Origin: an uncultured Nisaea sp.
GTDB taxonomy: Bacteria; Pseudomonadota; Alphaproteobacteria; Thalassobaculales; Thalassobaculaceae
Reading direction: 5' to 3'
DNA length: 64,000 bases
Assembly: GCA_964342575.1 (NCBI GenBank)
Contig: CAYFGZ010000001.1
Span: 6,310-70,309, forward strand
Numbering within the stretch: the stretch's first letter is position 1; each line of letters opens with the position of its first letter. The position numbers and the translations under genes were made by a program. Shown here piece after piece: positions 11,480-63,886 of the stretch. The notes below the pieces were generated by a model. It did no database searches. It was not told the DNA's origin and worked only from the letters and a program-made list of their open reading frames with translations.

Positions 11480-12166
11480 ATGTTATTAGGCGCGATAAAG
11501 ACACTTGCCCAGTTGGGCGATCCGGGTTTTCGAAGAGTTTTGCTGTATAGTGTGAGTTTGTCGGTTATAAGCCTTATTGCGTGCGTTGGGCTGAGTTGGG
11601 GACTACTCAATAAAATTGGTGTTTTTGGAATAGGATTTATTGATACTCTAGTTCCGTGGATCGGCTCAGCCGTGATTTTTTCCGTCGGTTTGGTATTTTT
11701 TCCATCTACTATCATGCTAATTTCTAGCTTATTTGCTGGCCGAATTTTGGCTTGTGTTGAAAGGAAATATTTTCCTAACGAAACAAGATATATCGAAGTT
11801 GGACTTTTTGATGCAGTAAAAGGTAGCATTGCGTTAGTACTAATTTCCGGGATTCTTAACATTTGTTTATTACCGGTCTATGCTCTCGGTATGCTCATTC
11901 CAGGCTTAAGTTTTGTCGTGTTTTATTGCGCAAATGGCTATCTTATCGGGAGAGAACTGTTTGAAACTGTTGCCGGACTGCACCTGCCGGCTAATCAATC
12001 AAAGGAATTACGCAAAAAAAACTTTGTGAGGATTACATGGGGTGGCGTGATAGTGACTTTTTTTGCAACAATCCCAATAGCCAATTTGCTGACGCCAATA
12101 ATTGGGCTCGGGATGATGGTTCACCTATTTCATCGACTACGGGAAGCGGACAGGGAAACCGATTAA
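11480..12166 (+). CDS. EI24/CysZ-like integral membrane protein
   Basis: It has about four hydrophobic segments, with size and layout like the alphaproteobacterial EI24-domain (sulfate transporter family) proteins. I recognised no catalytic motif. Confidence 0.55.
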   Translation: MLLGAIKTLAQLGDPGFRRVLLYSVSLSVISLIACVGLSWGLLNKIGVFGIGFIDTLVPWIGSAVIFSVGLVFFPSTIMLISSLFAGRILACVERKYFPNETRYIEVGLFDAVKGSIALVLISGILNICLLPVYALGMLIPGLSFVVFYCANGYLIGRELFETVAGLHLPANQSKELRKKNFVRITWGGVIVTFFATIPIANLLTPIIGLGMMVHLFHRLREADRETD

Positions 12167-46888: not shown

Positions 46889-46892
46889 TATC

Positions 46893-49229: not shown

Positions 49230-49239
49230 AAAAACTTAG

Positions 49240-50268: not shown

Positions 50269-50798
50269 CTGGTGTCCTTCGGCTGTTGGTCGCGTTGTCC
50301 AAAAAAAAGGGCTAAGGTAAGCTTTATATTGTCACCTATGGCATGTACCGCTCGTCTTCTGGCATCATGCTGTGCTGTAATATTTGCATACTCTGACTCA
50401 ACAATATTGAAAACTGTCGTGGATTCCGTGGTTTTGTTAACAAGGGTTGAATTAGAGCTTAAGCTATTAAGTTTAAAGTGAGCTTTTATTTTAACCTTGG
50501 CAAAGGTGGACGTTGCGTCGCGAAGGATAACCATATTCGATCTTGTTTCTTCCAAAACGACCTTTAAAACATAGTGAGGAGCTTGGGGACGACCAGTTGG
50601 CGTGAGAATATCGATCAGGTAATTGCGCAATTGCTGACCAACTCGATCTCGAATCGGGTCTATATTAATTACAGATAGCTGCTGTATAATCCCGTTACCA
50701 GAGGTTGGATTCGACGAATAAAGTGGTTTAAAGCCGCACCCCCCAAGAGAGTTTAATACTGCAATAAGTATTATCCAATGGACGCTACGCCACGACAT
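50265..50798 (-). CDS. lptE: LPS-assembly lipoprotein LptE
   Basis: It has a signal peptide with the lipobox LGGCGF and sits between leuS and holA. I set the start at MSWRSVH. Confidence 0.65.
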
Positions 50799-53343
50799 TA
50801 ACGATTCGATTCGGCACAATAACTACATTGCGAATGTCTTTATCCATTATCGATTTTTGCACGTTTTCGAGTTCAAACGCGAGCTTTTTTATCAGCTCCT
50901 CGGAAGAATCTCTGGGCAACTGGATTTCACCTCGCAGCTTGCCGTTAACTTGGACAGCAATCTTAACTAAATCGTCAATAACAAGTGCTTCATCGTAATT
51001 TGGCCAAGGTTCTTCTCGAAGCAAAGTTACGTGGCCCAGTTGCTGCCATATCTCCTCGGCTATATGTGGAGTCATAGGCTCTATCATCCGCAACAGGGTT
51101 TCATAGCCTTTATACATGGCGGCGGCGGCGCTACGGTCCGAAGGAACGAAGTTAACTAAGCAGTTGGTTAGTTCTCTTAGTTGCGCAACAGCGCTATTGA
51201 AACGCCAGCGTTCAATGCTTTCGGTAACTGATTTTATAGTCTTGTGGATGGTTTTGGTGAGTTCAGTAGCTTGCGCCGACTCCTTATCGGGGGGATTATC
51301 GATGGGTAGATGGTTTTCCCTGAATTTTAAGATACTTCGCCATAGTTTATTTAGATACCGCCACGCTCCGTCGACACCCGCTTCTGTCCATTCAAGGTCC
51401 CTTTCTGGAGGGGAGTCTGAGAGCATGAAAAGCCTTGCTGTATCGGCGCCATAAGCTTCAATAATGGCTTCTGGGTCCACGACGTTTCGGCGAGACTTGC
51501 TCATTTTTTCAATGCGGCCGACCTCTACTCGTTCACCGGTTTCTAAGTTCACTAGCTTTCCCGAATCATCCTTTTTTACTTGCGACGGGAAAAGCCAACC
51601 TGACGAGTCACTATATGTTTCATGACAGACCATTCCTTGGGTCATTAGCCCGGCGAAAGGCTCGTCTATATCTAGATAACCGCATTTGCGGAGGGCCCTT
51701 GTAAAAAACCGTGAGTACAAAAGATGCAACACAGCGTGCTCTACACCGCCAATGTATTGATCCACGGGGAGCCAATAACTGGCTGAGGCTGGATTAAAGG
51801 CCGTTGCTCCCTTGGGATCACAGAATCGGGCGAAATACCATGAGGATTCAAAAAAAGTGTCAAAAGTATCAGTTTCTCTCCGCGCCGCGCTGTTGCATTT
51901 GGGGCAAATAGTTTCCTTCCATGTCGGATGGTTTTCGAGAGGATTTCCCGTTTTCTCGAAGTCAACGTCCTCGGGAAGTGCTACTGGAAGTTGCCGGTCG
52001 GGAACCGGCACACATCCGCAATGCTCACAATGAATTATTGGAATGGGACAACCCCAGTAACGTTGTCTCGAAACCCCCCAGTCTCGAAGACGGTAGGTGA
52101 TTCGTGGACCGCCGCGTCCTTCCTTAGAAAGGCGTTCTACCACCTGGCTTTTTGCTTCTTCAATTGTCAAACCATCCAAAAAATGAGAGTTATATAATTT
52201 TCCACTCCCCACAAAAGCCTCTGAGTAAATTTTAAAGGAGGCAGGATCCTGATCGTCCGGTATTACCACTGGCTTTACAGGTAATGAGTATGACCGGGCA
52301 AAGTCTAGGTCCCTTTGATCATGAGCGGGGCACCCAAAGATAGCCCCCGTGCCGTATTCCATAAGCACAAAATTTGCCACATAGAGTGGGAGTTTTAGGT
52401 CTTTTATAAATGGATGCATTACTCGTAAGCCCGAGTCATATCCTCTCTTCTCGGCCGTCTCTATATCTGCTTCGCTGGTACTTAATTTATTGCATTCAGC
52501 AATAAACTCAGCTAGCCCCTTGTCTTTTTTGGCCGTAGCGCTGGCTAAAGGGTGGTTTGCGGCGATAGCGCAAAAAGATGCTCCGAAAATAGTATCTGGT
52601 CGGGTAGTAAAGACTTCTAGACGATTTTCTTCTCCCACAATGTCGAAAAAAATCTGTGCACCTTCGGAGCGGCCGATCCAGTTGTGCTGCATCAATTGAA
52701 CTCGAGCAGGCCAACGATCTAGTGAATTGATGGCTTGTAAAAGGTCTTCTCCATACTCAGTTATTTTAAGAAACCACTGGGATAGCAATCGCTTTTCGAC
52801 GGTGGCACCGGATCGCCACCCTTTTCCGTCAATAACCTGCTCGTTTGCAAGCACGGTATTTTCTGCGGGATCCCAATTAACCCAACTTTCCTTACGGTAC
52901 GCTAATCCATTTTTAACGAAGTCGGTAAACATTTTCTGTTCGTGTTTGTAGTAATCCGGAGAACAGGTTGTAATCTCGCGGTTCCAATCGTAGGAGAGAC
53001 CCATCCCCTGAAGTTGTTGGCGCATCGATTCTATATTCTCATAGGTCCATTTTGCTGGATGAACATCGCGTTCTAGTGCAGCATTTTCAGCTGGAAGCCC
53101 AAAAGCATCCCACCCCATAGGGTGAAGAACGTTAAACCCTCGGGCTTTTTTATATCTAGCAACCAGGTCCCCTAGCGTGTAATTGCGAACGTGCCCCATA
53201 TGTATTCGGCCGGAGGGATAAGGGAACATTTCCAAAACATAGAACTTCGGAAGCTGTGGATTTTCGCTGACGGAAAACGCCGATGTCTCGGCCCAAACGC
53301 GCTGCCATTTCTGTTCAGTTTCTCGAAAGTTATAACGCATCAT
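50785..53343 (-). CDS. leuS: leucine--tRNA ligase
   Basis: It has the HIGH-type motif [15 protein letters not shown] and the KMSKS motif, and is 852 aa long. Confidence 0.98.
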
Positions 53344-53402
53344 TCGGGTGACTATTCCTCTTGGTTGGCCGTCCTGGCGGTTTGGTTATAAGACGTTTGG
53401 CT

Positions 53403-53942
53403 CTATTTAACCTGAGGGGCAGAGCTTATTCGTAATTGTCTCGCACGAGTTAAAATAGAATCCTCCAATTCGCGATCCAGATCACTGCTTGTAGACGAAT
53501 CAATCCAACTTTCGTTAGAGGCCCTGACCTGTTTGAATAGCTTGGCTCTGACGCCATCCGATCTCAATGCCTTGCCAAGTATGAATAAATTTATTTTGAA
53601 TCGTTCGCCCTCGGATCCCGGGGGAGCATACCAATCTGTAATGATCACTCCACCGAAGGGGTCCGCCGAAACAAGTGGCATAAAGGCGATGGTATCCAGC
53701 GCCGCCCGCCATAGGAAACTGTTTACTCCAATGCCTGCGCTACCCTCGTTGCGTTCTGATAATCCCCCATCATTTTGAAACAACGTTATCCCATCAGATC
53801 CAAAGATGCTTTGGTGCTTTTCATAGGTAGGTATCCCCCCTGGCCCTGTTCGAGGGTAGCTGTACTCAATGTTAGAGCCCTCACACCCCAATAAGAAAAC
53901 AATAAAACTACCTAATATTGAGAACCGCACAGTTCGTTTCAT
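53403..53942 (-). CDS. DUF3576-like lipoprotein
   Basis: It has a signal peptide with the lipobox FLLGCEG. Its position immediately upstream of leuS is typical for this family in alphaproteobacteria; that point is from memory and unverified. Confidence 0.6.
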   Translation of the reverse strand: MKRTVRFSILGSFIVFLLGCEGSNIEYSYPRTGPGGIPTYEKHQSIFGSDGITLFQNDGGLSERNEGSAGIGVNSFLWRAALDTIAFMPLVSADPFGGVIITDWYAPPGSEGERFKINLFILGKALRSDGVRAKLFKQVRASNESWIDSSTSSDLDRELEDSILTRARQLRISSAPQVK

Positions 53943-54202
53943 GACCTCGGTTTCCATCCATTGCAATGCGTCGCTGAAATCTCTTTTAGCGTTTTGTTAA
54001 TAAAGACACAATTCAATATGACACTTTGGTTTCCAAAAGTATTTAATTGCTGATAAAATCGCCTAGAAATTCGGGTCAACAATTTAAAATTAGAAGCATC
54101 GACTAGTGATCAAGATTTATAGACTATTTCTCGGATGCCTGTGGGTTGTGTGACATTTATGGTACACTGCAGTGTTTTTGCACCAGATACGGCGATCAGG
54201 GT

Positions 54203-54232
54203 TTGACGTGAAGCCTCGAAACACAGTATTTT
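54203..54232 (+). promoter_or_regulatory. possible sigma-70 promoter of the porin gene
   Basis: The sequence is TTGACG-N17-GTATTT (or N18-TATTTT), about 95 nt upstream of the ATG. Confidence 0.3.
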
Positions 54233-54241
54233 CGCCTCAAT

Positions 54242-54285
54242 TGGAGAGATTCTATGGCGGTGATCGCCATTATTTGAACTCTCCA
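54242..54285 (+). promoter_or_regulatory. nested stem-loop in porin 5' leader
   Basis: An outer stem TGGAGAG/CTCTCCA (7 bp) encloses an inner hairpin ATGGCG-GTGAT-CGCCAT (6 bp). Confidence 0.35.
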
Positions 54286-54327
54286 GATTAACCGGCCAGT
54301 TTATGGCCTTTTAGGGAGAAGATAAGT

Positions 54328-55461
54328 ATGAAGAAAATTCTTCTAGGTTCAACCGCAATCGTTGCCGCGGGCATGATTGCGTCTGCTCCAGCAAGTGCTG
54401 CGAGCAAAATCAAAATAGGTGTTGGCGGTTACATGGAGCAGTGGGTTGGTTACGTCAGTAACGACGATGGTACCGACCAGGATTTCAGTGGCTTCGATGT
54501 AAAGTCTGACGCTGAAATTAACTTCAAAGGCAGTACAAAGCTCGATAATGGCTTGTCAGTTGGAGTTAATGTTCAGCTCGAAGCTAACCATAACGGTGGT
54601 GACCAAATTGACGAATCCTACATCATCCTGAAGGGTGGTTTCGGGGAAATCAATATTGGTTCCGAAAACTCGGCTCAGTATAAGATGCACTACGCGCCAT
54701 CTGACTTTGGTATTGGCATGAACTCTGGTGACGAAAGTTCCTGGGTGGCCACTATCCAGGATGCTGATGGAGACAGTGTTAGCAAAGGCGGCATGTTCCG
54801 TGCACCAATGGGTTCTACCTATGTTGAAGTCACACGAGCGAACGACTCGGAGAAGATCACCTACTACACGCCACGTGTAGAAGGTTTTCAACTCGGTGTT
54901 TCGTACTCGCCTGACTCCAATCAGGATGCAAATGCTCAGCCAAACCGTGATGCGGTAAACTCTGACCTTGTAATGGTAGGAGCAAACTTCAAGCGAAACA
55001 TGGGCGGCATGTCAATTGGAGTGTCAGCTGGCTACGGTACAGTAACCGATGCACCGGCAGCTCCTGGCAGTCTGGAACCATCAGCGATGAACTTTGGCGT
55101 CAAAATTGGCATGGGCGGAATGAGCGCAGGTGTCAGTATGGCTAGCTTTGAAGACCACGGTGCTCAGGATGGTACATCCATGAACGCTGGTGTAGCCTGG
55201 TCGTCTGGACCAATGGGTGTAAGTTTTGCTTATCTCCATGGTGAACGTGACGGTACGGGGACTACGGGTGCTGGTGATCTAGACGGTCAAGCCGAAGCTG
55301 ATGTATTTCATCTATCAATGAAATATTCTCTCGGCGGCGGTGTAACGTGGGCTGGTACGCTAGGCCACGCGACCTTTAGTTCTGACGATGTTGACATAGA
55401 TAATACTGTCGATTCGGTCAGCGCTACTTATGTTGTTACGGGCATTAAGATCGGCTTCTAA
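54328..55461 (+). CDS. outer-membrane general porin
   Basis: It has a signal peptide ending ASA-AS, an alternating beta-strand pattern rich in G/S/Y, and a C-terminal Phe (GIKIGF). Confidence 0.8.
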   Translation: MKKILLGSTAIVAAGMIASAPASAASKIKIGVGGYMEQWVGYVSNDDGTDQDFSGFDVKSDAEINFKGSTKLDNGLSVGVNVQLEANHNGGDQIDESYIILKGGFGEINIGSENSAQYKMHYAPSDFGIGMNSGDESSWVATIQDADGDSVSKGGMFRAPMGSTYVEVTRANDSEKITYYTPRVEGFQLGVSYSPDSNQDANAQPNRDAVNSDLVMVGANFKRNMGGMSIGVSAGYGTVTDAPAAPGSLEPSAMNFGVKIGMGGMSAGVSMASFEDHGAQDGTSMNAGVAWSSGPMGVSFAYLHGERDGTGTTGAGDLDGQAEADVFHLSMKYSLGGGVTWAGTLGHATFSSDDVDIDNTVDSVSATYVVTGIKIGF

Positions 55462-55482
55462 TAACGTAAGACACAAGTTAGG

Positions 55483-55513
55483 AAGAGGCTGCCTTTTGGC
55501 AGCCTCTTTTTTA
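55483..55513. terminator. bidirectional rho-independent terminator between porin and sulfotransferase 1
   Basis: The sequence AAGAGGCTGCC-TTTT-GGCAGCCTCTT forms an 11-bp perfect stem. A T-run follows on the + strand, and only a short AA on the other side. Confidence 0.9.
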
Positions 55514-55527
55514 TCTCAACTTCTTAT

Positions 55528-56355
55528 CTACGTTAAATAACCCAACATTTTCATTACACGACCGTGTTTCCCCGTGATTCGTTCGATCTGCTGACTCGAT
55601 AATTGCTCTTTCCACGACCCCGATTTGCCTTGTCGGAAAAAACGGTCAGCATGGGGGGGGCGCTCGCTAAAGCCGGAAGCATTCTCTTGCTTAGCAAGTT
55701 CCGTGAATGATGAAAACTGGATCGCGCGAGACAGTCTTTCCTCTACGATTTGAGTTCCAAGGGCTCTGAGCACCTTGGAAAACTCCTCTAGCGGGTTAGT
55801 AAGAAGGTCCTCGTAGCGGATAAGAAGACTGGGGAGCTGGTCATTTTGTAGCCAGGAAGTAACATGTTTTTCCCAGCTTCCGATAAAGGTGAGGACATTG
55901 TAGTTAACTTGTAACGTAGCATTTTGGTCACTTGCCATAAGGTTGATAGCATCGTCGAGGTTCAATCCCAAGTGCGCCGCATATGATGACGCCAGGTCGA
56001 GCGGGTTCCGGACCAAATATATGGCTCCTTTAGATACAAGTGGGTTTATGAGTTGATGGTCAGCCCAGATGGTATTCTGGCTGTGGGTTTTGACAAAATG
56101 ATCATGAGGCTTAAAATTTGCGATTAGCTCCTGTGCACGTCCTCTAAGTTCTACAGTTTCTATGTCCGAAAGTTCCTCCACGGGCCTTCCTGCGGCTTCC
56201 TGAAAAAACCTGGGGCGCGTGTCACTGAGTGTGAAAGCTCGCAGGTCCTCGATCTGGAAGGGTTCCTTCGTGTTCATCACATAGTTGGCAAGGAAAGCAC
56301 GCATCCAAGTGTTCCCGGACTTTGGAAAAGAGGCAATCCAAATGATCTTACCCAT
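55528..56355 (-). CDS. cytosolic-type (Sulfotransfer_1-like) PAPS-dependent sulfotransferase, copy 1
   Basis: It has the 5'-PSB loop FPKSGNTW, catalytic FVKTHS, the 3'-PB VRNPLDLASSY and the C-terminal FFRQGKSGSWKEQL. Confidence 0.85.
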   Translation of the reverse strand: MGKIIWIASFPKSGNTWMRAFLANYVMNTKEPFQIEDLRAFTLSDTRPRFFQEAAGRPVEELSDIETVELRGRAQELIANFKPHDHFVKTHSQNTIWADHQLINPLVSKGAIYLVRNPLDLASSYAAHLGLNLDDAINLMASDQNATLQVNYNVLTFIGSWEKHVTSWLQNDQLPSLLIRYEDLLTNPLEEFSKVLRALGTQIVEERLSRAIQFSSFTELAKQENASGFSERPPHADRFFRQGKSGSWKEQLSSQQIERITGKHGRVMKMLGYLT

Positions 56356-56370
56356 GCCGCCGACCGCCCT

Positions 56371-56437
56371 TTATATTATCTTGGCCGAGTAATTTGTTAG
56401 GTAAAAGCAGCCTTCTTTTCCTCCCAAGAAAATATAG
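56371..56437. repeat. imperfect inverted repeat in the divergent sulfotransferase/oxygenase promoter region
   Basis: TTATATTATCTTGG (56371-56384) pairs with CCAAGAAAATATAG (56424-56437). That gives 12 Watson-Crick pairs, 1 GU and 1 mismatch, with a 39-nt spacer. Confidence 0.45.
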
Positions 56438-56550
56438 TACAATGGTGCTACTTGTGAAAGTTTTTCTGAACAACTGCAATTGCCTAAATAATACAGAATG
56501 CAGTATGACTTAAATTACCCCAAACACGTAAGTTTTTTTGGAGCGGCACA

Positions 56551-57747
56551 TTGGAAAGTTTTAATTATAATGATTTGTTCAAGAAACTTGATCGAAGAGA
56601 ATTCCTCGACAACTATCACGACAAAAAACCCTATTTTGAGCAGGGGGCTATCAAGGATGTCGGCGCGATTTTCTCCTGGGCGGATCTCAATGACCTATTT
56701 AATAGGCCAAAGCTCTGGACAGGGGATATGATAGAATTAGGAATAGAGGGGAATTTGGTGCCACCAGCTCAATATTGTAAATATGGAATGAGTCGAGTGG
56801 GCGACCAGGTTCTTCGGCCAGACGGTCAGCGAATCAATCATTTCTTGCGTCAGGGTGCTACGTTGGTTCTGGATTACTTAGAGGGTATTCACCCCGGCGT
56901 TCGAGGGGTGGCGAACTGTATAGAACGGTTAACCGGGACTGTCACATCCTCGAATGCGTATTGCTCTTGGCAAGGCGTGAAAGGCTATGCGTCTCATTTC
57001 GATACGATGTGTGTTTTCGCAATTCAGATAGAGGGGGAAAAGACCTGGAATCTCTATAAGGGCCGAGTGAACGAGCCTATGGAAATTCCCGGCTCTAGCC
57101 CCTCTGAGTTTTCCATAGAACAACATAATTCCCAGAAAGGACCACTTGACCAACAAATATTGATGAAACCAGGTGACATCCTCTATCTCCCTAGAGGGTT
57201 ATATCATGACGCACTGGCAACGGACACGGCTTCTCTTCACTTGTCCTTTGGTGCGACATATCTTGCCGGGTTTACAGCCGTTAGTATGCTGGTGCAGGAA
57301 ATGCAACGAGAGGAATTTTTTCGTAAGCGGCTGCCCCATTTCGACGACCAAGCCGAGCTCTCAAAATATCTGACAGAAGTTGGCAGCGCTGCAGCCAAAC
57401 GCATGGCCGATCCGGCGTACCATGAACGGGTAGCGAATCATATGAGGCAGAATTTAGGAGATAAGGTTTCTGGGCAGCGGCTCCCAATTCGAGACGCAGA
57501 CCGATGTTATATGACGACGCGACATGAGCCTAAGCTGATTAGAAGGGGACAAAAGTACAATCTAGTACATCAAGGAGTGGCAATGGAAATATTGCAAGAA
57601 AACGTTACTGTCGTTAAGGATATACTCAGCAGGGAAGTGTTCTGGCTGTCGGAAATAACGAATCTAGAATCTGGGCTAGACAAAGGTTTGAACCAGCTAT
57701 TGAAGGATTTAGTTAATCACAAGATTATTTGGCGATTAGCTGGCTAA
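56551..57747 (+). CDS. JmjC/cupin-4 family Fe(II)/2-oxoglutarate-dependent oxygenase
   Basis: The facial triad candidates are SHFD (HxD) and LPRGLYHD, and the double-stranded beta-helix segment VFAIQIEGEKTWNLY...PGDILYLPRG is present. A ~130 aa C-terminal extension resembles ribosomal-oxygenase-type proteins. The TTG start has GGAG 7 nt upstream. Confidence 0.75.
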   Translation: MESFNYNDLFKKLDRREFLDNYHDKKPYFEQGAIKDVGAIFSWADLNDLFNRPKLWTGDMIELGIEGNLVPPAQYCKYGMSRVGDQVLRPDGQRINHFLRQGATLVLDYLEGIHPGVRGVANCIERLTGTVTSSNAYCSWQGVKGYASHFDTMCVFAIQIEGEKTWNLYKGRVNEPMEIPGSSPSEFSIEQHNSQKGPLDQQILMKPGDILYLPRGLYHDALATDTASLHLSFGATYLAGFTAVSMLVQEMQREEFFRKRLPHFDDQAELSKYLTEVGSAAAKRMADPAYHERVANHMRQNLGDKVSGQRLPIRDADRCYMTTRHEPKLIRRGQKYNLVHQGVAMEILQENVTVVKDILSREVFWLSEITNLESGLDKGLNQLLKDLVNHKIIWRLAG

Positions 57748-57768
57748 TCTCGAAAATGGAGATAGATT

Positions 57769-58614
57769 GTGAGCGGCATTATTTGGTTAGCCTCCTATCC
57801 TAAGTCGGGAAATACTTGGCTTAGGATTTTCATTGAAAATTTGTTTCGGAATACCCATGTTCCAGCGAATATTAACGAATTAGGGGTTGTAAAATATACA
57901 GATAATTCGTACTCGCTGTATGAAAAAGTAGTAGGGCACTCAATAATAGGTCAGGAAGATCACCAGCTGCATGGATACAGAAAAGCGGTGCAGGATTACC
58001 TAGGTAGCCAAACGCAAACCATTTTTGTTAAGACACATAACGCCTTACTGGTACATGAGGGTTCTCCCCTTATCCATATGGAAAATACCGTGGGAGCTGT
58101 GTACCTTCTTCGGAATCCCTTCGATATGGTAGTTTCATTTGCACATCACTATCGAATAACATACGACGAAGCTATCCAAGCGATAGCATCCCCCTATCAC
58201 CGTATAAACACCACACAGCAGGGTCTTTTTCAGATTCTAGGAGGTTGGACCAATCATTATAACAGCTGGTTTGGGGTCGAAAATTTTAACCCACTTTTTA
58301 TTCGGTATGAGGATATGATCCGAAATCCAGTGAAAACTTTTGGGAAGTTTATGAAGTTTTTGGGATTACCAAAAAACCCGCAGCGGCTAAAACGGGCGAT
58401 TTCTAACAGCTCATTCGAGGAGGTTTCCGACCAAGAGGCGAGAAATGGATTTGGAGAACGTTCCCGGCCAGACCAAACGTTTTTTAGGACAGGAAGAGTT
58501 GGGGCCTACAAAAAGGTTCTGTCTGAAACGCAAATTAGTCGAATCATTGAAACCCAGTCTGATTTGCTCCTTGAAAAAGGTTATATATGTAAAGACGGAA
58601 AACCAAAGGTGTAA
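57769..58614 (+). CDS. cytosolic-type (Sulfotransfer_1-like) PAPS-dependent sulfotransferase, copy 2
   Basis: It has YPKSGNTW, FVKTHN, LRNPFDMVVSF and FFRTGRVGAYKKVL, and is clearly paralogous to 55528-56355. The GTG start has GGAG 7 nt upstream. Confidence 0.85.
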   Translation: MSGIIWLASYPKSGNTWLRIFIENLFRNTHVPANINELGVVKYTDNSYSLYEKVVGHSIIGQEDHQLHGYRKAVQDYLGSQTQTIFVKTHNALLVHEGSPLIHMENTVGAVYLLRNPFDMVVSFAHHYRITYDEAIQAIASPYHRINTTQQGLFQILGGWTNHYNSWFGVENFNPLFIRYEDMIRNPVKTFGKFMKFLGLPKNPQRLKRAISNSSFEEVSDQEARNGFGERSRPDQTFFRTGRVGAYKKVLSETQISRIIETQSDLLLEKGYICKDGKPKV

Positions 58615-58634
58615 AAAAATGTATTACAAAAACA

Positions 58635-60563
58635 ATGGTTACTGAAAACGTTCTGGATAAGATCTTGTCGCTTGCTGCTGTGGGACGATGGCCAGAAGCT
58701 AGAAAAATATATCGACGGGTGCTAAAGACTAACCCAAAAGACTGGAATCTATTATACAAAATAGGAATACTAGAAGCCAAAGCAGAAAATTATCCAGTGG
58801 CTATCACCATTCTTGAAAAAGCAAAGAAAATAGATCCTAAAAATTCGCAAATAAACGTAAATCTAGCGCAACTTTATGCTCTAAATGATCAACCAAGCAA
58901 AGCATGGCCAATTCTCCAGGACTTAAGACAAAAGGTCGGAGATTCAGAGCCATTTTATCGTCAGCTTGGTGGCGTAGCACAAAAGCTCCAAAAATATGAA
59001 GAGGCCGAAGATTCATACAGGAAAGCCTTGGATTTGGGCAGTAAAGATGTAGAACTCTTGAATAATTATGCCGTCCTTCTGCAGGGGTATGGGAGGTCCG
59101 TGGAAGCTGTACAGTTGCTTGAAAGGGCGTTCGCGGAAGACTCTACATCCACCGCAATTGCGAACAATCTAGCCAATTTGTGTATAATTTTTGGCAGAAT
59201 GGATAGAGCCCTGGCTATGTTTAATGACGCGTTAACGCGAAATCCAGAAAATGTTTCTATAAACCGGAATCTTGCTCTTCTTCATAGAAGCTTGGGTGAT
59301 CCAAAACGCGCGTTGGATGCAGCGCAACGCGCAGCCATTTTGGATCCCCAAAACGTAGATAGCTTGACCATCAGTGCTGAATTACTTGAACGGCGTGCGG
59401 AACTAGATCGCGCGGCCCAGCTTTTGGAGTTTTGTCTGATTGGATCACCCGATAATATCGATGCAATCTCGCTAAAGGCTCGATCTCTTAGGCGTGTTGG
59501 AAAGATTGATAGTTCAATAAAATTCCTGGAGGAAAACCTGCTTCGATTAGGCGAGATGCCTAACACGTATAAAATTAATTTTGAGCTAGGGCACGCTTAC
59601 CAGGCCCAAGGTAATTATAACGAAGCTTTCCCTATTTTTAATCGGGCTAACAAGCTTCAAGAACAAGACTCAGAGGAGAAAAATATAGAACCCAGCCGTG
59701 CGTTTACAAGGCTCAGGGACCTGAAATCAATCTTGTCCAGGATCGAGATTGATGAGGCCCCAAAAAATTCAGCGGTTGATGGACACGATGATCCCGTCTT
59801 CATGGTAGGGTTTCCGAGATCTGGGACAACTTTATTGGATCAAGTGCTGGATAGTCACCCGGGAGTAGTAGTTTTGGAAGAACGGCCATTAGTAGCCGGT
59901 ATGATACGGCGGCTAGCCTCCGACGATTTCAGGTATCCTCAGGATTTAGCGCAGTTAAATAGTCGGATGATACAAAAATTGCGCTCTGGGTATTTTCAGG
60001 ACCGTATGCAGTTTATAGAGGTTGAGGCTGGTGAGGTTTTTGTCGACAAAATGCCATTAAATATTAACGAGGCGATCCTAATAAATAGCGTTTTTCCAAA
60101 AGCCCGATTTATTGTCGTTATCAGGGATCCTTGTGATGTGTGCTTAAGTTGTTTCACACAGGCCTTCGAACTCAATGACTGGATGGCTGTTTTTAATGAC
60201 ATCGCTGCCACAGCTAAACTTTATAATGAAGTTTTTGATTTATGGTATGAGACGGTCAGTAAATTTAATATAGAATATCATGAGGTAAGATACGAAGATT
60301 TGGTAAACGATCTACAAGGGACAGCATCGAAAATCTTAAAGTTTCTCGATTTGTCATGGGACAATAAGATGGCCCGACATGACGAGCATGCCCGCAACCG
60401 TGGATACTTGGCTACGCCGAGTCATGCTCAGGTTACTCAGCCAGTCTATCAACATGCAGTTCAACGTTGGAAGCTTTATGGCGGTCACATGAAAGAAGTA
60501 GAAAAGCTATTGCAAACAAAGAGACGCCAGTTAGGATATTCTACGACGGGCCAAAAGGACTGA
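58635..60563 (+). CDS. TPR-repeat protein fused to a Sulfotransfer_3 (tyrosylprotein-sulfotransferase-like) domain
   Basis: The N-terminal ~370 aa contain many 34-residue TPR-like repeats. The C-terminal domain starts with FMVGFPRSGTTLLDQVLDSHP, a PAPS 5'-PSB loop of the TPST/RaxST type. Confidence 0.85.
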   Translation: MVTENVLDKILSLAAVGRWPEARKIYRRVLKTNPKDWNLLYKIGILEAKAENYPVAITILEKAKKIDPKNSQINVNLAQLYALNDQPSKAWPILQDLRQKVGDSEPFYRQLGGVAQKLQKYEEAEDSYRKALDLGSKDVELLNNYAVLLQGYGRSVEAVQLLERAFAEDSTSTAIANNLANLCIIFGRMDRALAMFNDALTRNPENVSINRNLALLHRSLGDPKRALDAAQRAAILDPQNVDSLTISAELLERRAELDRAAQLLEFCLIGSPDNIDAISLKARSLRRVGKIDSSIKFLEENLLRLGEMPNTYKINFELGHAYQAQGNYNEAFPIFNRANKLQEQDSEEKNIEPSRAFTRLRDLKSILSRIEIDEAPKNSAVDGHDDPVFMVGFPRSGTTLLDQVLDSHPGVVVLEERPLVAGMIRRLASDDFRYPQDLAQLNSRMIQKLRSGYFQDRMQFIEVEAGEVFVDKMPLNINEAILINSVFPKARFIVVIRDPCDVCLSCFTQAFELNDWMAVFNDIAATAKLYNEVFDLWYETVSKFNIEYHEVRYEDLVNDLQGTASKILKFLDLSWDNKMARHDEHARNRGYLATPSHAQVTQPVYQHAVQRWKLYGGHMKEVEKLLQTKRRQLGYSTTGQKD

Positions 60564-60576
60564 TAGGGATGAGAGA

Positions 60577-61242
60577 GTGAATATAGCGGATAAACTAACC
60601 AATGTTCTTTCCAAGATAAACCAAGTTTCAATAGCGGCCGGCCGGGATTCTGGCAGTGTGTCACTAGTAGCAGTAAGTAAAGTACAGGATAGCGCTGCTA
60701 TTGAGCAGGCCCTTAATGCTGGGCATCGGGTTTTTGGGGAAAATAGGATCCAAGAAGCTAAAGAGAAATGGCCGCCCCTAAAATCAAGGTATCCGGGAGT
60801 TGAGTTGCATTTAATAGGTCCATTGCAGACGAATAAAGTAAAAGAGGCTGTATCGTTATTTGATGTAATAGAGACGATCGACCGCCCTAAATTGGCTCGG
60901 GCATTGAAGCAGGAGATGGTCAGGCAGTCTGTTGAGATTCCATGTTTTGTTCAAATTAATACTGGCGAGGAAAAGCAAAAAACAGGAATTTTTCCAGATG
61001 AAGCCGTGGAGTTTATAGAATATTGCAGGCGTGATTTATGTATAAAGATAGAGGGGTTAATGTGTATTCCGCCGATAGACGAAGAACCAGCCCTACATTT
61101 CTCTCTATTGAAATCTATAGCAAAGAAGGCCGGAGTTCTTAATCTCAGTATGGGTATGAGTGACGATTTCGACGTAGCCATAGAAATCGGGGCTACGCAC
61201 ATTCGATTAGGGACATTGATATTTGGAAAGCGGCCATCTTAG
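60577..61242 (+). CDS. yggS: YggS-family pyridoxal-phosphate homeostasis protein
   Basis: It has VSLVAVSKVQ (PLP Lys), HLIGPLQTNKV and LSMGMSDDF. The start is GTG. Confidence 0.92.
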   Translation: MNIADKLTNVLSKINQVSIAAGRDSGSVSLVAVSKVQDSAAIEQALNAGHRVFGENRIQEAKEKWPPLKSRYPGVELHLIGPLQTNKVKEAVSLFDVIETIDRPKLARALKQEMVRQSVEIPCFVQINTGEEKQKTGIFPDEAVEFIEYCRRDLCIKIEGLMCIPPIDEEPALHFSLLKSIAKKAGVLNLSMGMSDDFDVAIEIGATHIRLGTLIFGKRPS

Positions 61243-61248
61243 GCGTAG

Positions 61249-61767
61249 TCAACTGCCAGCCACAATCATCACTTCTGGATTTTCAACTTGTTTTAACACA
61301 TCTAAAAGAAAATGTTTCTCGATAGCTATGCAACCGGCTGTGGCCCCAAAGTCAGGGCGGGCTATATGCAAAAATATGGCACTGCCCGCACCTAAAACGC
61401 GTGGACCATCATTATAGCCAAGTTCTACTACAATATCGTACATATTGTCCGCCCTCCAGAGAACCTCGTGACTAAAGGGATGGGGTATGCAAACTAGACG
61501 GTTGTAATTTTCTTTGTCGGTTGGATCATCTGACCAACCCATTATTTCAGTCAGAGGTACAAGTGGAAGTGGGGTTACTGGTTCCTCTATTCGGTCGGGT
61601 CGATAAAATACACGCCTAAGTGGCCATGTGCCGATTGGCGTGCAGCCATCCCCCTCCTGTTTTCGGTCAGTGAAGCCCGATTTTCCGATACAACAGGGAA
61701 TGGCATAGTTGTTAAATTTTAACCGAGCTTGGTTTCCATCTGACATGGAAGAAATAAAAATTGGCAC
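61249..61767 (-). CDS. L,D-transpeptidase catalytic-domain (YkuD-like) family protein, no signal peptide
   Basis: It has the H...GC catalytic motif FLHIARPDFGATAGCIAI. I see no N-terminal hydrophobic segment. Confidence 0.7.
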   Translation of the reverse strand: MPIFISSMSDGNQARLKFNNYAIPCCIGKSGFTDRKQEGDGCTPIGTWPLRRVFYRPDRIEEPVTPLPLVPLTEIMGWSDDPTDKENYNRLVCIPHPFSHEVLWRADNMYDIVVELGYNDGPRVLGAGSAIFLHIARPDFGATAGCIAIEKHFLLDVLKQVENPEVMIVAGS

Positions 61768-61777
61768 GAGACCTCGC

Positions 61778-62569
61778 TTAATGTTTTGGCTCAGTTATTT
61801 GACGCGAACGGAGTTTTTCGTATTTTCCAAGAGTTTGCAACACCCATTGTTCGACATTAGCATTGGCCTTGGGCGTGCCCGAGCCATAATCTGGAAAATA
61901 GGGGGCCGGAGGCGATAGAAATTCGCCAGACTCTTCGGAAAAGCCCGTTGCTCGGCCGGCTGTATTTTTGTTTATCTGTGGAGAGGGGCTGGGAGGAGCT
62001 GGTTGGACTACTGTTGAATGTGTTGCTGTTGAAGTTAGCTTAAAAACTTTATTTTTCCTATTGGTGCTTACGTGAAAAAATTTATTAGGCTTAGAAGCGT
62101 CTACTAGAGAAAATTTAGTGGTGGTCCGGTAGTCTTCATCGAAAGACGGATTGATCTTTGGTGAGTAATCTGCTCTATCGCTGCCATGAAGCCCAGAATT
62201 ATTCCGTGAATTGTTGTGAAACGCGTTCTTCCCAGGGTTTTGTATCTCGGATCCCATTTCGGAGTTAGTAATGTAGTTGCCGAGAGCAATGATCAATCCC
62301 GCAGGGCCACCATAAAGGGCGCCTCCTAGGAACTTTGGAACCTCCCCAATTTTGTCGCCCGATACAGCTCGATAAACCGTGGAGACGATCGGAAGGTGTT
62401 GAAGGGGATTAATCACGTCTATAAAATCCTTAAATTCGACTGTTTTTTTTGTTGAACCTATAGCAACATTTTCATTGTCGGGAGACATCGGGTCAGCCTC
62501 GCCTTGGGGTGGGGAGGAAAACGCCCGTGCCGTCCCATCCCTCAGTTCATTAAAAGTTGTCGCAGTCAT
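61778..62569 (-). CDS. hypothetical protein (low-complexity Pro/Ser-rich C-terminal half)
   Basis: It is a long ORF with an SD-like AAGGG 5 nt upstream of the ATG. I recognised no motif. The conserved-looking core is FIDVINPLQHLPIVSTVYRAVSGD. Confidence 0.5.
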   Translation of the reverse strand: MTATTFNELRDGTARAFSSPPQGEADPMSPDNENVAIGSTKKTVEFKDFIDVINPLQHLPIVSTVYRAVSGDKIGEVPKFLGGALYGGPAGLIIALGNYITNSEMGSEIQNPGKNAFHNNSRNNSGLHGSDRADYSPKINPSFDEDYRTTTKFSLVDASKPNKFFHVSTNRKNKVFKLTSTATHSTVVQPAPPSPSPQINKNTAGRATGFSEESGEFLSPPAPYFPDYGSGTPKANANVEQWVLQTLGKYEKLRSRQITEPKH

Positions 62570-62573
62570 TTTA

Positions 62574-62595
62574 ACCCTTTCGTGGTCGAAAGGGT
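62574..62595 (-). promoter_or_regulatory. perfect hairpin sequestering the Shine-Dalgarno of the hypothetical gene 61778-62569
   Basis: The minus strand reads ACCCTTTCG-ACCA-CGAAAGGGT-TAAA-ATG. The stem is 9 bp with a 4-nt loop, and its 3' arm contains the only SD-like AAGGG. Confidence 0.6.
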
Positions 62596-62683
62596 CCGTG
62601 CAAACTTCGTACCAAAAATCAAAGCGTAACGAATTAAAAAATTCATAGTAAAAGTTTTGCTATTCTAATTTTGGATGATTACT

Positions 62684-63886
62684 TTAAAAAAGATGACCTG
62701 TTTTATCAGCTTTAGTCTTTAGATATCGAGCATTGTGAGGATTTGACGGAAAAACATGCGCCACTCTCTCGACGACAACGATGCCGGTAGACGCCAACTG
62801 TGCCACTTTATCTGGGTTATTTGTTAATAGTTTAACGCTTTGAACACCAAGCTGTTTCAAAATTTCGCCTGCTGGCGCGTAAATTCTTTCATCAACCTCG
62901 AAGCCCATTTGATTATTTGCATCGGCAGTGTCTGATCCTAAATCCTGTAAATTATATGCGCGTAGCTTATTCACAAGGCCAATGTCCCGGCCTTCTTGTG
63001 CTAGATAAACTAATACTCCGCTACCGTGGTTGGCGATGGTTTTAATCGCGCCCCGAAGCTGATCACCGCAGTCGCAGCGCAGGCTTCCAAGCAAATCGCC
63101 CGTCAGGCATTGCGAATGGAGCCTTACTAAAACAGGTTTGGTGATGTCTGGTTGTCCAATCAAAATGGCAACGTGTTCTTCGCCGCCATCTATTGGCCTA
63201 AATGCTATCAACTCCGCATTTTCAGCGTCGGCTAGTGGTACTCTAGCTGAAGTAGCTCTAACCAGCCGTTGCGCTCGCAGCTGCGGAAAAATGTTTATGG
63301 ACTCTGTGTCAACCAAGAGGAGGCCGTTTTCCTTGGCCGAAGCCGCTAAGCGATCAAGAAGCGACGGGGGAATTCGAGAAAAAATAATGCTCGGGAGTAG
63401 CCGAGAAAACTTGATAAGCTGAATAGCTTTAGAGGCAATCCCATCACTGGGTTCCGGAACAATTGACAAATCAGTTAAATTTGGATGGCTAATCTGATCA
63501 GCATTTTTTTCGTGTTCAAAAACAGGGTTTGACAGTCTCTGGACAAAATCGGCCCCATTATCAGGGGGAATACTGATGCTTACAATAGCGGTGGGATCTC
63601 TGTTTAATTTAATCGCGGCGCTGCGATGGTTAGTAATGACTAACGATGGCTGGGATCCCGCTATTTGCGCTATTAGATCCAGCCCATTTGTTGTGGCTAG
63701 CTCAGCCGCCTGTACTATAGCTGCGGTTCTTTTAGTGCTATCTACAAGCATTATAATTGCACCTCTTCTGAGGTCTCCTATAGCCCGTTCGACAGACGTT
63801 TGGGCTGGAGACGAATCAGTAGGTACAATGTTGATTGCTTTGCTAGAGTAGTCACGAGCCTCTTTAAAATTTCTAAAACTAGTCAT
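62684..63886 (-). CDS. ribA: GTP cyclohydrolase II with N-terminal degenerate RibB-like domain
   Basis: The C-terminal half has VRLHSQCLTGDLLGSLRCDCGDQL (the zinc and GTP site of RibA). The N-terminal ~200 aa lack the DHBP-synthase catalytic acidic motif. Confidence 0.85.
   Translation of the reverse strand: MTSFRNFKEARDYSSKAINIVPTDSSPAQTSVERAIGDLRRGAIIMLVDSTKRTAAIVQAAELATTNGLDLIAQIAGSQPSLVITNHRSAAIKLNRDPTAIVSISIPPDNGADFVQRLSNPVFEHEKNADQISHPNLTDLSIVPEPSDGIASKAIQLIKFSRLLPSIIFSRIPPSLLDRLAASAKENGLLLVDTESINIFPQLRAQRLVRATSARVPLADAENAELIAFRPIDGGEEHVAILIGQPDITKPVLVRLHSQCLTGDLLGSLRCDCGDQLRGAIKTIANHGSGVLVYLAQEGRDIGLVNKLRAYNLQDLGSDTADANNQMGFEVDERIYAPAGEILKQLGVQSVKLLTNNPDKVAQLASTGIVVVERVAHVFPSNPHNARYLKTKADKTGHLF

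Follow-up and report, generated by a model that had tools for sequence, protein, structure and literature searches.

Four genes encoding one JmjC-type oxygenase and three sulfotransferases (ST1, ST2 and TPR-ST) lie together in the window, i.e. the stretch of 64,000 nucleotides from an uncultured Nisaea sp. that was analysed. Their proximity raises the question of whether these enzymes act together, what they modify and whether the oxygenase supplies the hydroxyl group that is subsequently sulfated, as proposed by the initial annotation. With a slot-conserved hydroxylase, three sulfotransferases and a fusion in relatives, the block looks like an uncharacterised bacterial set for the modification of proteins or peptides.

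Layout and composition of the block

The ORF list matches the genes, coordinates and strands of the initial annotation (Table 1) as well as the gaps of the plus-strand unit (21 nt between JmjC and ST2, 20 nt between ST2 and TPR-ST). The gene yggS has the same orientation as TPR-ST, begins 13 nt 3' of it and is probably co-transcribed. ST1 and JmjC are divergent. The region between them contains no credible small ORF and no Rfam match, and promoter-like matches are no more frequent there than in shuffled sequence. All four block proteins are cytoplasmic; a signal peptide or transmembrane segment is absent from each.

Table 1. Features of the block and its flanks (positions in the window).
Feature	Position	Strand	Description
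DUF3576 lipoprotein	53403-53966	-	PF12100 (2e-40); lipobox-like N-terminus; between leuS and the porin gene; conserved slot flank
Porin_4 outer-membrane porin	54328-55461	+	PF13609 (2e-50); N-terminal signal peptide
ST1	55528-56355	-	275 aa; cytosolic-SULT-type, predicted PAPS-dependent sulfotransferase; PF00685
ST1/JmjC divergent intergenic region	56356-56550	.	195 nt; presumed promoter region
JmjC_2 Fe(II)/2-oxoglutarate oxygenase (JmjC)	56551-57747	+	398 aa, TTG start; PF08007, ROX architecture
ST2	57769-58614	+	281 aa; cytosolic-SULT-type sulfotransferase; PF00685
TPR-ST	58635-60563	+	642 aa; TPR repeats and TPST-like catalytic domain; PF13469
yggS (PLP-binding protein)	60577-61242	+	PF01168; conserved slot flank

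Re-inspection of the block and its neighbours gave the same outcome as the first reading. PKS/NRPS, glycosyltransferase and exporter genes and precursor-peptide ORFs are absent inside and adjoining the block, and no PAPS-supply gene is found near it. Scaffold-biosynthesis genes are also absent from its vicinity. The lack of a precursor peptide, an exporter and a PAPS-supply gene in the environs is a point against a tailoring function.

Two side claims about the block do not hold. By eye it had looked more AT-rich than its flanks. The GC contents of ST1 (0.484), JmjC (0.465), ST2 (0.421) and TPR-ST (0.434) compare with 0.461 ± 0.027 for the 57 other genes of the window, and the codon usage is within the range of the window with GC3 of ST1 as the sole outlier (z = +2.8). 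The reading as an AT-rich or foreign island is thus not supported. Furthermore, the block is not simply "accessory", as its oxygenase has long been established at the yggS/porin/DUF3576/leuS slot in many alphaproteobacteria. This slot extends from the porin gene to yggS beside leuS and parAB-gidAB and occurs in marine and soil alphaproteobacteria. Synteny of yggS is kept in nearly all slot loci, and in the alphaproteobacterial loci a porin gene, at times in 2–3 copies, is located beside the slot.

The oxygenase and the sulfotransferases

Pfam agrees with the domains assigned initially, and all motifs that had been read by eye are present in the four proteins. The oxygenase matches PF08007 with an E-value of 2e-23 (82.7 bits, cutoff 22). 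Its facial triad is H149-x-D151...H219; these three residues and K164 are invariant in an alignment of 18 sequences. The AF2 model (pLDDT 82.9) comprises a barrel (residues ~1–238), a helical dimerisation domain (~240–308) and a winged-helix domain (~319–396). Foldseek lists NO66 and MINA53 as best matches of this model (~1e-21, ~450 columns), with YcfD and YxbC next in rank. At the sequence level NO66 (3e-14) and YxbC (1.5e-12) are matched, and E. coli YcfD only with an E-value of 0.008, so that an assignment as YcfD orthologue was rejected.

As judged from the model, the oxygenase has the three-domain architecture of the ribosomal oxygenases (ROX) NO66 and MINA53. The Pfam family JmjC_2, the HxD...H triad and the order of JmjC, dimerisation and winged-helix domains are common to it and the ROX enzymes NO66/RIOX1, MINA53/RIOX2 and YcfD/RoxA; a Lys at the 2OG-binding position is shared with NO66 and MINA53. 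In contrast to the ROX enzymes, to which it is only 14–19% identical, it is genomically coupled to sulfotransferases and fused to one in relatives. To our knowledge, neither coupling nor fusion of this kind occurs in any ROX enzyme. All characterised ROX enzymes that we know of (NO66, MINA53, YcfD) hydroxylate protein side chains. For YxbC-like JmjC proteins we know of no substrate, which counts against tailoring of a protein or peptide.

ST1 and ST2 match PF00685 (2e-25 and 3e-27, respectively) and are 35% identical to each other. ST1 contains the motifs PKSGNTW, KTH, RNPLD..S and FFRQGKSGSWK, with equivalents in ST2, and the family alignment shows no variation at K12, H90, R115 and S123. The closest solved structures are Teg12/Teg14 for both, together with SULT1 aryl sulfotransferases for ST1 and SULT1B1/1C for ST2. 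Teg12/Teg14/StaL and SULT1 have the 5'-PSB loop, the catalytic His and the 3'-PB motifs in common with ST1 and ST2. However, these best matches are modest (E ~1e-13 to 1e-15), both proteins are members of a large family in alphaproteobacteria with tandem arrays in the yggS slot, and the block, unlike the surroundings of Teg12/Teg14/StaL, has no NRPS or glycopeptide cluster. The nearest enzymes are peptide-phenol and aryl sulfotransferases, which was counted in favour of protein or peptide tailoring. Against it, small-molecule substrates are common among SULT-type enzymes. ST1 is confined to the sub-lineage of the window, with orthologues in L081/L082, L094 and L001. The L001 copy is split over two frames.

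In TPR-ST, the catalytic domain (residues 387–576, nt 59793–60362) is preceded by ~370 aa of TPR repeats. The protein matches PF13469 Sulfotransfer_3 (6e-36) and many TPR families. The catalytic domain can be aligned over its full length with the tyrosylprotein sulfotransferases TPST1/2, including the PAPS-binding loops and the catalytic positions. The alignment with TPST1/2 (~250 residues, 4e-14 to 2e-12) takes in PRSGTTL, the EE position, DKMP, RDP..S and S..QV. Like RaxST, TPR-ST is predicted from its sequence to be cytoplasmic and PAPS-dependent. It differs from TPST (TPST1/2, plant TPST) in the lack of a Golgi membrane anchor and from both TPST and RaxST in its N-terminal repeats. Unlike in raxX-raxSTAB, a precursor peptide and a RaxA/RaxB-type exporter are not adjacent. 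Among natural proteins the TPRs of OGT and SPINDLY are most similar to those of TPR-ST, and in these proteins an N-terminal TPR superhelix also precedes a C-terminal transferase domain. That domain is a glycosyltransferase in OGT/SPINDLY and a sulfotransferase in TPR-ST, and the resemblance is regarded as an analogy of architecture only.

Linkage and separability in related genomes

Adjacent sulfotransferases are found in three separate clades of the oxygenase (A, B and C). In clade A, which contains its close relatives, ST2 is located directly 3' of JmjC in 14/14 loci with gaps of ~20 nt. In L005, JmjC and ST2 have moved jointly to another locus. In clade C, which is gammaproteobacterial, JmjC and a sulfotransferase gene form divergent pairs at loci other than the slot; the link is therefore independent of the slot. 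Additionally, a natural fusion (TPR-Sulfotransfer_3::JmjC_2) is present in 13 protein clusters (P0121–P0133; 51–100% identity, four data sources), located in the same yggS slot. The fusion proteins keep both sets of catalytic residues. They are unlikely to be assembly artefacts because the 13 clusters come from independent sources. The co-occurrence of oxygenase and sulfotransferases suspected initially is thus borne out, and these gene arrangements support a functional link between them.

JmjC-only, ST-only and mixed slots are all observed. Of the 24 oxygenase-seeded slots with full coverage, 11 lack sulfotransferases, and JmjC is absent from 7 of 9 ST-seeded loci; with a rough NJ tree and seeded sampling these figures are conditional frequencies rather than prevalence, and because each genome was sampled as stretches of ≤20 kb, the gene for a "missing" partner could lie in another part of the genome. 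Many slots contain 1–4 tandem sulfotransferases and no oxygenase. In an abundant TARA lineage (L089/L090, L176-178), a clear orthologue of ST2 (61% identity to ST2, 34% to ST1) is the only gene of the set between yggS and the porin gene, accompanied by neither JmjC nor TPR-ST. This implies an acceptor of ST2 that is independent of the oxygenase of the block. Homologues of JmjC elsewhere have differing neighbours, namely NAD-GDH, purB or a GluQRS-like gene. The JmjC-only and ST-only slots could also mean two unrelated functions at one permissive insertion site, which counts against a tailoring set.

According to the initial annotation, scattered homologues or a stand-alone ribosomal oxygenase would speak against its proposal. 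The slots with positional homologues of the oxygenase and no sulfotransferase do so in part.

Substrate and order of the reactions

The favoured explanation, with a probability of roughly 55%, regards the block as the most complete form of a modular cytoplasmic tailoring set in the conserved slot. The target shared by its enzymes would be encoded outside the block and is probably a protein or peptide. The hydroxylase would work alongside predicted PAPS-dependent sulfotransferases of two kinds, the TPR-tethered, TPST-like TPR-ST and the SULT/Teg12-like ST1 and ST2. All of them would decorate one common substrate, which may be recruited by the TPR domain of TPR-ST. Oxygenase and TPR-ST would form the tightest pair, apparently gained and lost jointly and fused in one lineage, whereas ST2 and ST1 would sulfate further hydroxyls present independently of the oxygenase. 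Protein or peptide is most probably the nature of the substrate in view of the ROX fold, the TPST-like domain and the OGT-like TPR array. Speculatively, the neighbouring porin is a candidate.

A strict sequence, in which the hydroxyl made by the oxygenase is itself O-sulfated afterwards, is rather doubtful. Most plausibly it would concern TPR-ST only, for which it is possible; for ST2 it is unlikely. In a variant, an aromatic residue would be hydroxylated (Phe to Tyr or Tyr to DOPA), and the phenol formed would be a fitting acceptor for TPST-like or aryl sulfotransferases. The three sulfotransferases of the block are all similar to enzymes that sulfate phenols or Tyr. JmjC-only genomes are compatible with this order, hydroxylation being able to stand alone. 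The JmjC/TPR-ST fusion and the tight operon coupling suit consecutive steps, but the fusion agrees equally well with action on the same substrate. Furthermore, the solitary ST2 orthologue and the many slots with sulfotransferases and no JmjC imply that ST2-type enzymes, at least, need no such oxygenase. In the known ROX products, Arg or His carries an aliphatic C3 alcohol, and we are aware of no precedent for the sulfation of such alcohols. Of the initial proposal, the linkage of the genes is therefore supported (clades, fusion) and the obligatory order is not, given the JmjC-less ST2 and the oxygenase slots lacking sulfotransferases.

The initial annotation knew of no characterised pathway of this composition, and a published description of such a block was not found in the literature. 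The logic, however, had been predicted before. Iyer, Abhiman, de Souza and Aravind (2010) proposed hydroxylation and then sulfation for other bacterial dioxygenase-sulfotransferase operons (PMC2938197), which favours the strict sequence. As in these operons, a 2OG oxygenase and a P-loop sulfotransferase are co-encoded or fused, with a peptide or protein as the presumed target. In contrast, their dioxygenases are of the beta-hydroxylase/PhyH type, or of the FIH1-type JmjC in eukaryotes, and collagen-like/tail-collar substrates and PAPS synthetases are co-encoded (PMC2938197). The block has neither a substrate nor a PAPS gene, its oxygenase belongs to the MINA/NO66 clade and its sulfotransferase is TPR-tethered and TPST-like. 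The neighbourhoods given for the MINA/NO66 clade in that study also differ (ATP-grasp genes, mnmA/purB). Additional support for the strict sequence is provided by the YxbC-like JmjC enzyme CzlI, which hydroxylates peptide Phe to Tyr (PMC11575548).

It is unlikely that the block hydroxylates and sulfates a metabolite (aromatic or amino-acid-derived, an osmolyte or an envelope/LPS precursor), with the TPR repeats serving complex assembly and not the binding of a protein substrate. Xenobiotic, steroid and natural-product sulfotransferases are indeed among the enzymes most closely related to ST1 and ST2, the tandem arrays recall the diversification of tailoring enzymes, and envelope genes (porin, DUF3576 lipoprotein, lptE) are neighbours. 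A precedent is plant jasmonate metabolism, in which a 2OG oxygenase step is followed by a sulfotransferase step. However, the ROX winged-helix architecture, the TPST-like domain and the OGT-like TPRs indicate protein or peptide substrates, and the neighbourhood contains no scaffold-biosynthesis genes.

Coincidental co-location of a housekeeping (e.g. ribosomal) hydroxylase and unrelated accessory sulfotransferases in a permissive slot would agree with the JmjC-only and ST-only loci and with the differing contexts of JmjC homologues elsewhere, but is highly improbable in view of several findings not expected by chance, namely the conserved fusion protein, the gammaproteobacterial pairs outside the slot, the joint relocation in L005 and the closely spaced JmjC-ST2 pairs throughout clade A.

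Layout and chromosomal setting of the block

An ORF listing places the four genes of the block exactly where the initial annotation had put them, and a Pfam search bears out every domain assigned there. The catalytic motifs that had been read by eye are present and conserved in alignments of homologues. The sulfotransferase gene ST1 and the JmjC oxygenase gene are divergent, with 195 nt between them. On the plus strand, JmjC and ST2 are separated by 21 nt and ST2 and TPR-ST by 20 nt, and yggS (60577) starts 13 nt past TPR-ST.

Genes of the block and related features at the porin...yggS slot of other loci
Feature	Locus	Position	Strand	Size	Domains and remarks
ST1	window	55528-56355	-	275 aa	PF00685 Sulfotransfer_1, 2e-25
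JmjC oxygenase	window	56551-57747	+	398 aa	TTG start; PF08007 JmjC_2 (formerly Cupin_4), 2e-23
ST2	window	57769-58614	+	281 aa	PF00685 Sulfotransfer_1, 3e-27
TPR-ST	window	58635-60563	+	642 aa	long TPR array and PF13469 Sulfotransfer_3, 6e-36
TPR-ST::JmjC fusion	L015	2467-5619	+	1050 aa	single ORF: TPR repeats, Sulfotransfer_3, JmjC_2
TPR-ST::JmjC fusion	L087	10001-13126			same yggS slot
TPR-ST::JmjC fusion	L088	3030-6188			same yggS slot
Lone ST2 orthologue	L089	7001-7849			abundant TARA ocean lineage
Lone ST2 orthologue	L090, L176-L178				abundant TARA ocean lineage
Array of 3-4 tandem genes	L095	6143-9490		~280 aa each	Sulfotransfer_1
Array of 3-4 tandem genes	L103	5985-8687		~280 aa each	Sulfotransfer_1
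Array of 3-4 tandem genes	L106	6962-9618		~280 aa each	Sulfotransfer_1
Array of 3-4 tandem genes	L111	17-3062		~280 aa each	Sulfotransfer_1

The block had been described as AT-rich, which is not borne out by its composition. The GC contents of ST1 (0.484), JmjC (0.465), ST2 (0.421) and TPR-ST (0.434) compare with 0.461 +/- 0.027 for 57 further window genes; codon usage does not stand out and is inside the range of the window. The only GC3 outlier of the block is ST1 (0.529, z = +2.8 relative to the other window genes); judged by this higher GC3, it may be a later addition than ST2 and TPR-ST. The same slot holds oxygenase and sulfotransferase genes across many genera, which argues against a genomic island, and no tRNA or other RNA family is found by Rfam in the whole window. 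Recent horizontal transfer is thus ruled out by gene-wise GC, GC3 and codon usage together with synteny.

The block is preceded by gidA/gidB/parA/parB-like genes, holA-like and lptE-like genes, leuS, a DUF3576 lipoprotein gene and a Porin_4 gene. It is followed by yggS, a YkuD L,D-transpeptidase gene, a gene without Pfam match and the gene of GTP cyclohydrolase II. Just upstream of leuS (44990-50819), ORFs of gidA and gidB size precede parA and parB, which are confirmed by Pfam, and ORFs without Pfam match occupy the holA and lptE positions. The region is a core, probably origin-proximal part of the chromosome. The other annotated genes of the window are of the housekeeping type (dapF, a radical-SAM MiaB-like gene, ftsY, dapB, dnaK/dnaJ/grpE/hrcA and rph).

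Pfam annotation covered positions 1-20852 and 47497-63886. No PAPS-supply gene (cysDNC, APS kinase) is present in the annotated parts, in line with what had been noted earlier. A gene of the CysZ/EI24 family (sulfate transporter family) lies about 44 kb from the block (11480-12166, plus strand). The reported lack of an exporter or precursor-peptide gene also stands: among all ORFs of at least 20 aa around the ST1-JmjC intergenic region there is no credible or conserved small ORF, and the block neighbours (porin, DUF3576, yggS, YkuD) include no ABC or MFP genes. A sulfated RiPP system of the RaxX-RaxSTAB type was therefore rejected, as neither an adjacent precursor-peptide gene nor a peptidase-containing ABC exporter with its partner was found, and neither the ORF listing nor Rfam gave a credible RiPP precursor. 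The 263-aa protein without Pfam match (61778-62569, minus strand) has a conserved N-terminal domain (approximately residues 44-109) and a low-complexity, Pro/Ser-rich C-terminal half. It was dismissed as a co-varying substrate, since the N-terminal domain is kept in slot loci with and without sulfotransferases.

Neither a signal peptide nor a hydrophobic segment occurs in any of the four block proteins; the porin and the DUF3576 lipoprotein of the flank do carry such features. All four enzymes are thus predicted to be cytoplasmic, where PAPS is available.

Active sites and predicted architecture of the four enzymes

The oxygenase reaches 82.7 bits against PF08007 (cutoff 22) and belongs to the JmjC_2 family. 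The Fe(II) facial triad HxD...H (H149, D151 and H219) and Lys164 are invariant across 18 oxygenase homologues and the fusion proteins. By analogy to NO66 and MINA53, Lys164 is the putative basic 2OG-binding residue. In phmmer searches the best matches of the sequence are human NO66 (3e-14), B. subtilis YxbC (1.5e-12) and MINA53, whereas YcfD from E. coli and R. marinus is barely detected (E 0.008-0.01; E. coli YcfD 0.008). Orthology to YcfD/RoxA, the L16 Arg81 hydroxylase, is thus rejected.

The AlphaFold2 model (pLDDT 82.9) comprises a JmjC barrel, a helical (dimerisation) domain and, at the C-terminus, a winged-helix-like domain. In Foldseek, this model matches NO66 and MINA53 at ~1e-21 across about 450 aligned columns, followed by YcfD (~1e-16) and YxbC. 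By model and alignment, the oxygenase thus has the full three-domain architecture of the ribosomal oxygenases (ROX). An exhaustive HMMER search across 1.84 billion representatives yields only 171 clusters that match the oxygenase at E <= 1e-30. One 50%-identity cluster stands for the subfamily of the window, and the match that follows has 37% identity; the subfamily is thus compact and distinct.

ST1 and ST2 share 35% identity. Both carry the 5'-PSB loop (PKSGxTW), the catalytic His (KTH) and the 3'-PB motif (RNPxD...S), and Lys12, His90, Arg115, Asn116, Asp119 and Ser123 are invariant in the family alignment. Pfam matches and motifs assign both to the cytosolic SULT-type sulfotransferases (PF00685). 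The nearest solved structures are the glycopeptide-aglycone sulfotransferases Teg12/Teg14 and cytosolic aryl sulfotransferases.

The catalytic domain of TPR-ST aligns end to end with TPST1/2 and 8w5z over about 250 residues, including the PRSGTTL loop, EE, the Lys of DKMP, RDP..S and the C-terminal Ser of S..QV. The acidic EE position holds the catalytic Glu in TPST2; the roles of the aligned residues are assigned by analogy to TPST2 structures. This alignment and the PF13469 match place the enzyme with the TPST-like sulfotransferases. The TPR part has its closest natural counterparts in the substrate-binding TPRs of OGT and SPINDLY. The TPR-sulfotransferase family is large: of the candidates scored, more than 2300 proteins reach E <= 1e-20.

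Linkage and separability of oxygenase and sulfotransferases

Loci were collected by an oxygenase-seeded scan with one genome per GTDB species, and the best 80 of at least 582 loci were analyzed with tblastn, iterated HMMs and a rough neighbour-joining tree from a quick alignment. About 15-20 kb around each gene were inspected; absences are therefore local, and frequencies are conditional on the seeded sampling. Genes in high-GC loci were called by HMM searches on stop-to-stop ORFs and by GC3-filtered calls (a GC3 heuristic). Single-linkage clustering of the longest ORFs in these loci was discarded, as it merged unrelated families and picked up shadow ORFs.

Three of the oxygenase clades carry a neighbouring sulfotransferase in all their members. 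Clade A comprises the window, L001-L008 (Nisaea, Thalassobaculum and uncultured alphaproteobacteria), L081, L094, L174 and L175. In each of the 14 clade-A loci the oxygenase is immediately followed by ST2, and in nearly all of them TPR-ST comes next; ST1 is present only in the window, L081/L082, L094 and L001. In the MAG of L001, the ST1 orthologue (9003-9862, minus strand) is split over two overlapping frames and is either a pseudogene or affected by an assembly frameshift. In L005, the oxygenase-ST2 pair is relocated together to an unrelated locus beside his genes. In clade B (L015, L048, L051, L059, L060, L064), the oxygenase again lies in the yggS slot, and one or two TPR-STs directly adjoin it. 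Clade C consists of gammaproteobacterial loci (L058, L067, L077, L078, L079) in a wholly different genomic context, in which a ~320-aa sulfotransferase (Sulfotransfer_3) is divergent from the oxygenase. Several additional TPR-STs are present in L058 and L078. In L071, a methyltransferase occupies the divergent position and a Sulfotransfer_3 ORF lies downstream.

In some lineages the two enzymes are encoded by one gene. A collection of 5.8 billion proteins contains 13 clusters of such TPR-ST::JmjC fusions (P0121-P0133; 51-100% identity, 1012-1052 aa), with sequences from four sources (ENA, NCBI, JGI and Logan). One of them is named 'TPR repeat protein/ribosomal protein L16 Arg81 hydroxylase' by JGI. 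The fusions retain the oxygenase triad and the sulfotransferase loops, and their genes occupy the same slot between yggS and DUF3576/leuS with further sulfotransferases. This Rosetta-stone fusion is the strongest evidence that oxygenase and TPR-ST work together. Oxygenase and sulfotransferase thus show both marks of a functionally linked module, a neighbourhood that is kept in divergent genomes and the fusion of genes.

The association is not universal. Of 24 fully covered oxygenase-seeded slots, 13 have one sulfotransferase or more, and the 11 that have none belong mainly to Geminicoccaceae and various Rhodospirillales.

Separation in the opposite direction was found by an ST2 protein search with three look-ups and by a metagenome scan seeded with an ST1/ST2 alignment. 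The TARA lineage listed in the table has a lone ST2 orthologue (61% identity to ST2, 34% to ST1) between porin gene and yggS, and oxygenase, TPR-ST and ST1 are all absent from the slot. Its LeuS is 73% similar to that of the window, the same level as in lineages with the full block. Some of these lone-ST2 protein clusters have hundreds of member sequences. In the metagenome scan, the slot often holds one to four tandem Sulfotransfer_1 genes, and the oxygenase is present in only two of nine fully covered slots and absent from seven. L094 reproduces the four-gene block of the window exactly, and L095 has four sulfotransferases and the oxygenase. The proteins of the tandem arrays share ~40% identity with ST1 and likewise with ST2, and suggest a family of paralogues that diversifies rapidly.

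The clade-A oxygenase is thus never found without ST2, whereas ST2 is often found without the oxygenase. A pathway in which ST2 depends on a hydroxyl group made by the oxygenase predicts the opposite. Hydroxylation followed by sulfation is therefore not supported as an obligate order, since sulfotransferase orthologues occur without the oxygenase within the ~15-20 kb inspected (L089/L090, L176-178 and seven of nine ST-seeded slots).

Reaction order and candidate substrates

The best-supported reading is that the block encodes a modular set of cytoplasmic tailoring enzymes with a shared substrate encoded outside the block. A protein or peptide is favoured as substrate by the ROX architecture of the oxygenase and, in TPR-ST, by the TPST-like catalytic domain and a TPR array resembling that of OGT. 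Oxygenase and TPR-ST would act as a tight pair, being co-present, co-lost and fused, and ST2 and ST1 would sulfate positions whose presence does not depend on the oxygenase.

The order proposed in the initial annotation, hydroxylation and then sulfation, is unlikely for ST2, whose orthologues can stand alone in the slot, and may hold for TPR-ST. An attractive but conjectural variant is aromatic hydroxylation by the oxygenase and subsequent sulfation: all three sulfotransferases resemble phenol- or Tyr-sulfating enzymes, and the YxbC-like JmjC enzyme CzlI turns a peptide Phe into Tyr (PMC11575548). The other rivals are a small-molecule pathway, against which the features that favour a protein or peptide speak, and coincidental co-location. 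Coincidence is unlikely in view of the fused genes, the oxygenase-sulfotransferase pairs of gammaproteobacteria and the joint relocation in L005.

For the modular set, the always-adjacent Porin_4 precursor and ribosomal proteins are speculative candidate substrates, the latter because of the ROX precedent. For the porin, one paper states that Omp1X, like RaxX, is sulfated by RaxST (PMC4892823). At rather long odds, the block may perform a housekeeping-type cytoplasmic protein sulfation, in which the ROX hydroxylase and the TPR-tethered TPST-like sulfotransferase, fused in some lineages, would both modify one residue or patch of a protein of the cell itself. This could be a protein of the ribosome or of translation, or the precursor of the neighbouring porin. 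The product would be an O-sulfated hydroxy-amino acid, a sulfotyrosine from a newly hydroxylated aromatic ring or, with sulfate as the leaving group, a dehydro residue. The latter chemistry is that of CurM and retinol dehydratase.

A literature search (JmjC and sulfotransferase clusters, TPR-sulfotransferases, YxbC, RiPP sulfation) retrieved no characterised system of this composition. Neither linkage nor fusion between a ROX-type oxygenase and TPR-TPST-like sulfotransferases is described in the papers found, and none of them is a functional study on TPR-sulfotransferases. The closest precedents are CzlI and the predictions of Iyer et al. 2010 (PMC2938197). According to the latter, the products of certain dioxygenase-sulfotransferase operons in bacteria are predicted to act on collagen-like or tail-collar proteins from the same operon, first by hydroxylation and then by sulfation. 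The authors also report eukaryotic sulfotransferase domains fused to FIH1-type JmjC domains. The MINA/NO66 clade is described there with neighbourhoods other than sulfotransferases, whereas the ROX-type oxygenase of the window is sulfotransferase-linked. The earlier statement that no characterised pathway has this composition thus agrees with the search, but the kind had already been predicted. So far it is known as a prediction only; the block is not categorically new and its chemistry is putative.

The locus is widespread and abundant in alphaproteobacteria, including TARA ocean, soil and freshwater metagenomes, and a ROX-type hydroxylase is repeatedly combined there, even fused, with TPST-like and SULT-like sulfotransferases. 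To our knowledge, protein or peptide sulfation is almost unrecorded in bacteria, RaxST/RaxX being the textbook case, and for JmjC protein hydroxylases of bacteria YcfD is the main example. Defined gene sets are available, namely the four-gene block, the three-gene version from cultured Nisaea and Thalassobaculum strains and the 1050-aa fusion. They may lead to a post-translational modification or a class of sulfated metabolites that is new and relevant to marine organic sulfur, and they open a first way into the function of the TPR-sulfotransferases, a very large and uncharacterised family.

Neighbours of the JmjC-only clades (NAD-glutamate dehydrogenase, small OmpA-domain protein, GluQRS-like protein) were set aside as substrate clues, being lineage-specific and not decisive. 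In 16 of 21 Acetobacteraceae loci (L012, L014, L020-L022, L025, L027, L032, L033, L038, L045, L046, L052, L054, L066, L068), the JmjC homologue is divergent from the gene of a ~1600-aa NAD-specific glutamate dehydrogenase, an enzyme that makes 2-oxoglutarate, located upstream of JmjC, which itself lies at about 10 kb of the locus. A small OmpA-domain gene is often found 3' of JmjC in the Acetobacteraceae loci. In L085 (8001-11109), a JmjC homologue with 35% identity to that of the window lies two genes upstream of purB, an arrangement similar to the purB/mnmA neighbourhood described for genes of the MINA/NO66 clade in proteobacteria (PMC2938197). A PF13759 (2OG-FeII_Oxy_5) oxygenase adjoins or lies near JmjC in two unrelated loci (L083 9281-9946 and L005 8369-9163, both minus strand), which hints at multi-oxygenase neighbourhoods like those in Iyer et al. 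2010. Two loci of the Brevundimonas clade contain two or three tandem JmjC paralogues (L075 739-4275; L057 8669-11017), and in the Brevundimonas loci a 282-aa tRNA-synt_1c (GluQRS-like) gene follows JmjC (L047 11137-11985).
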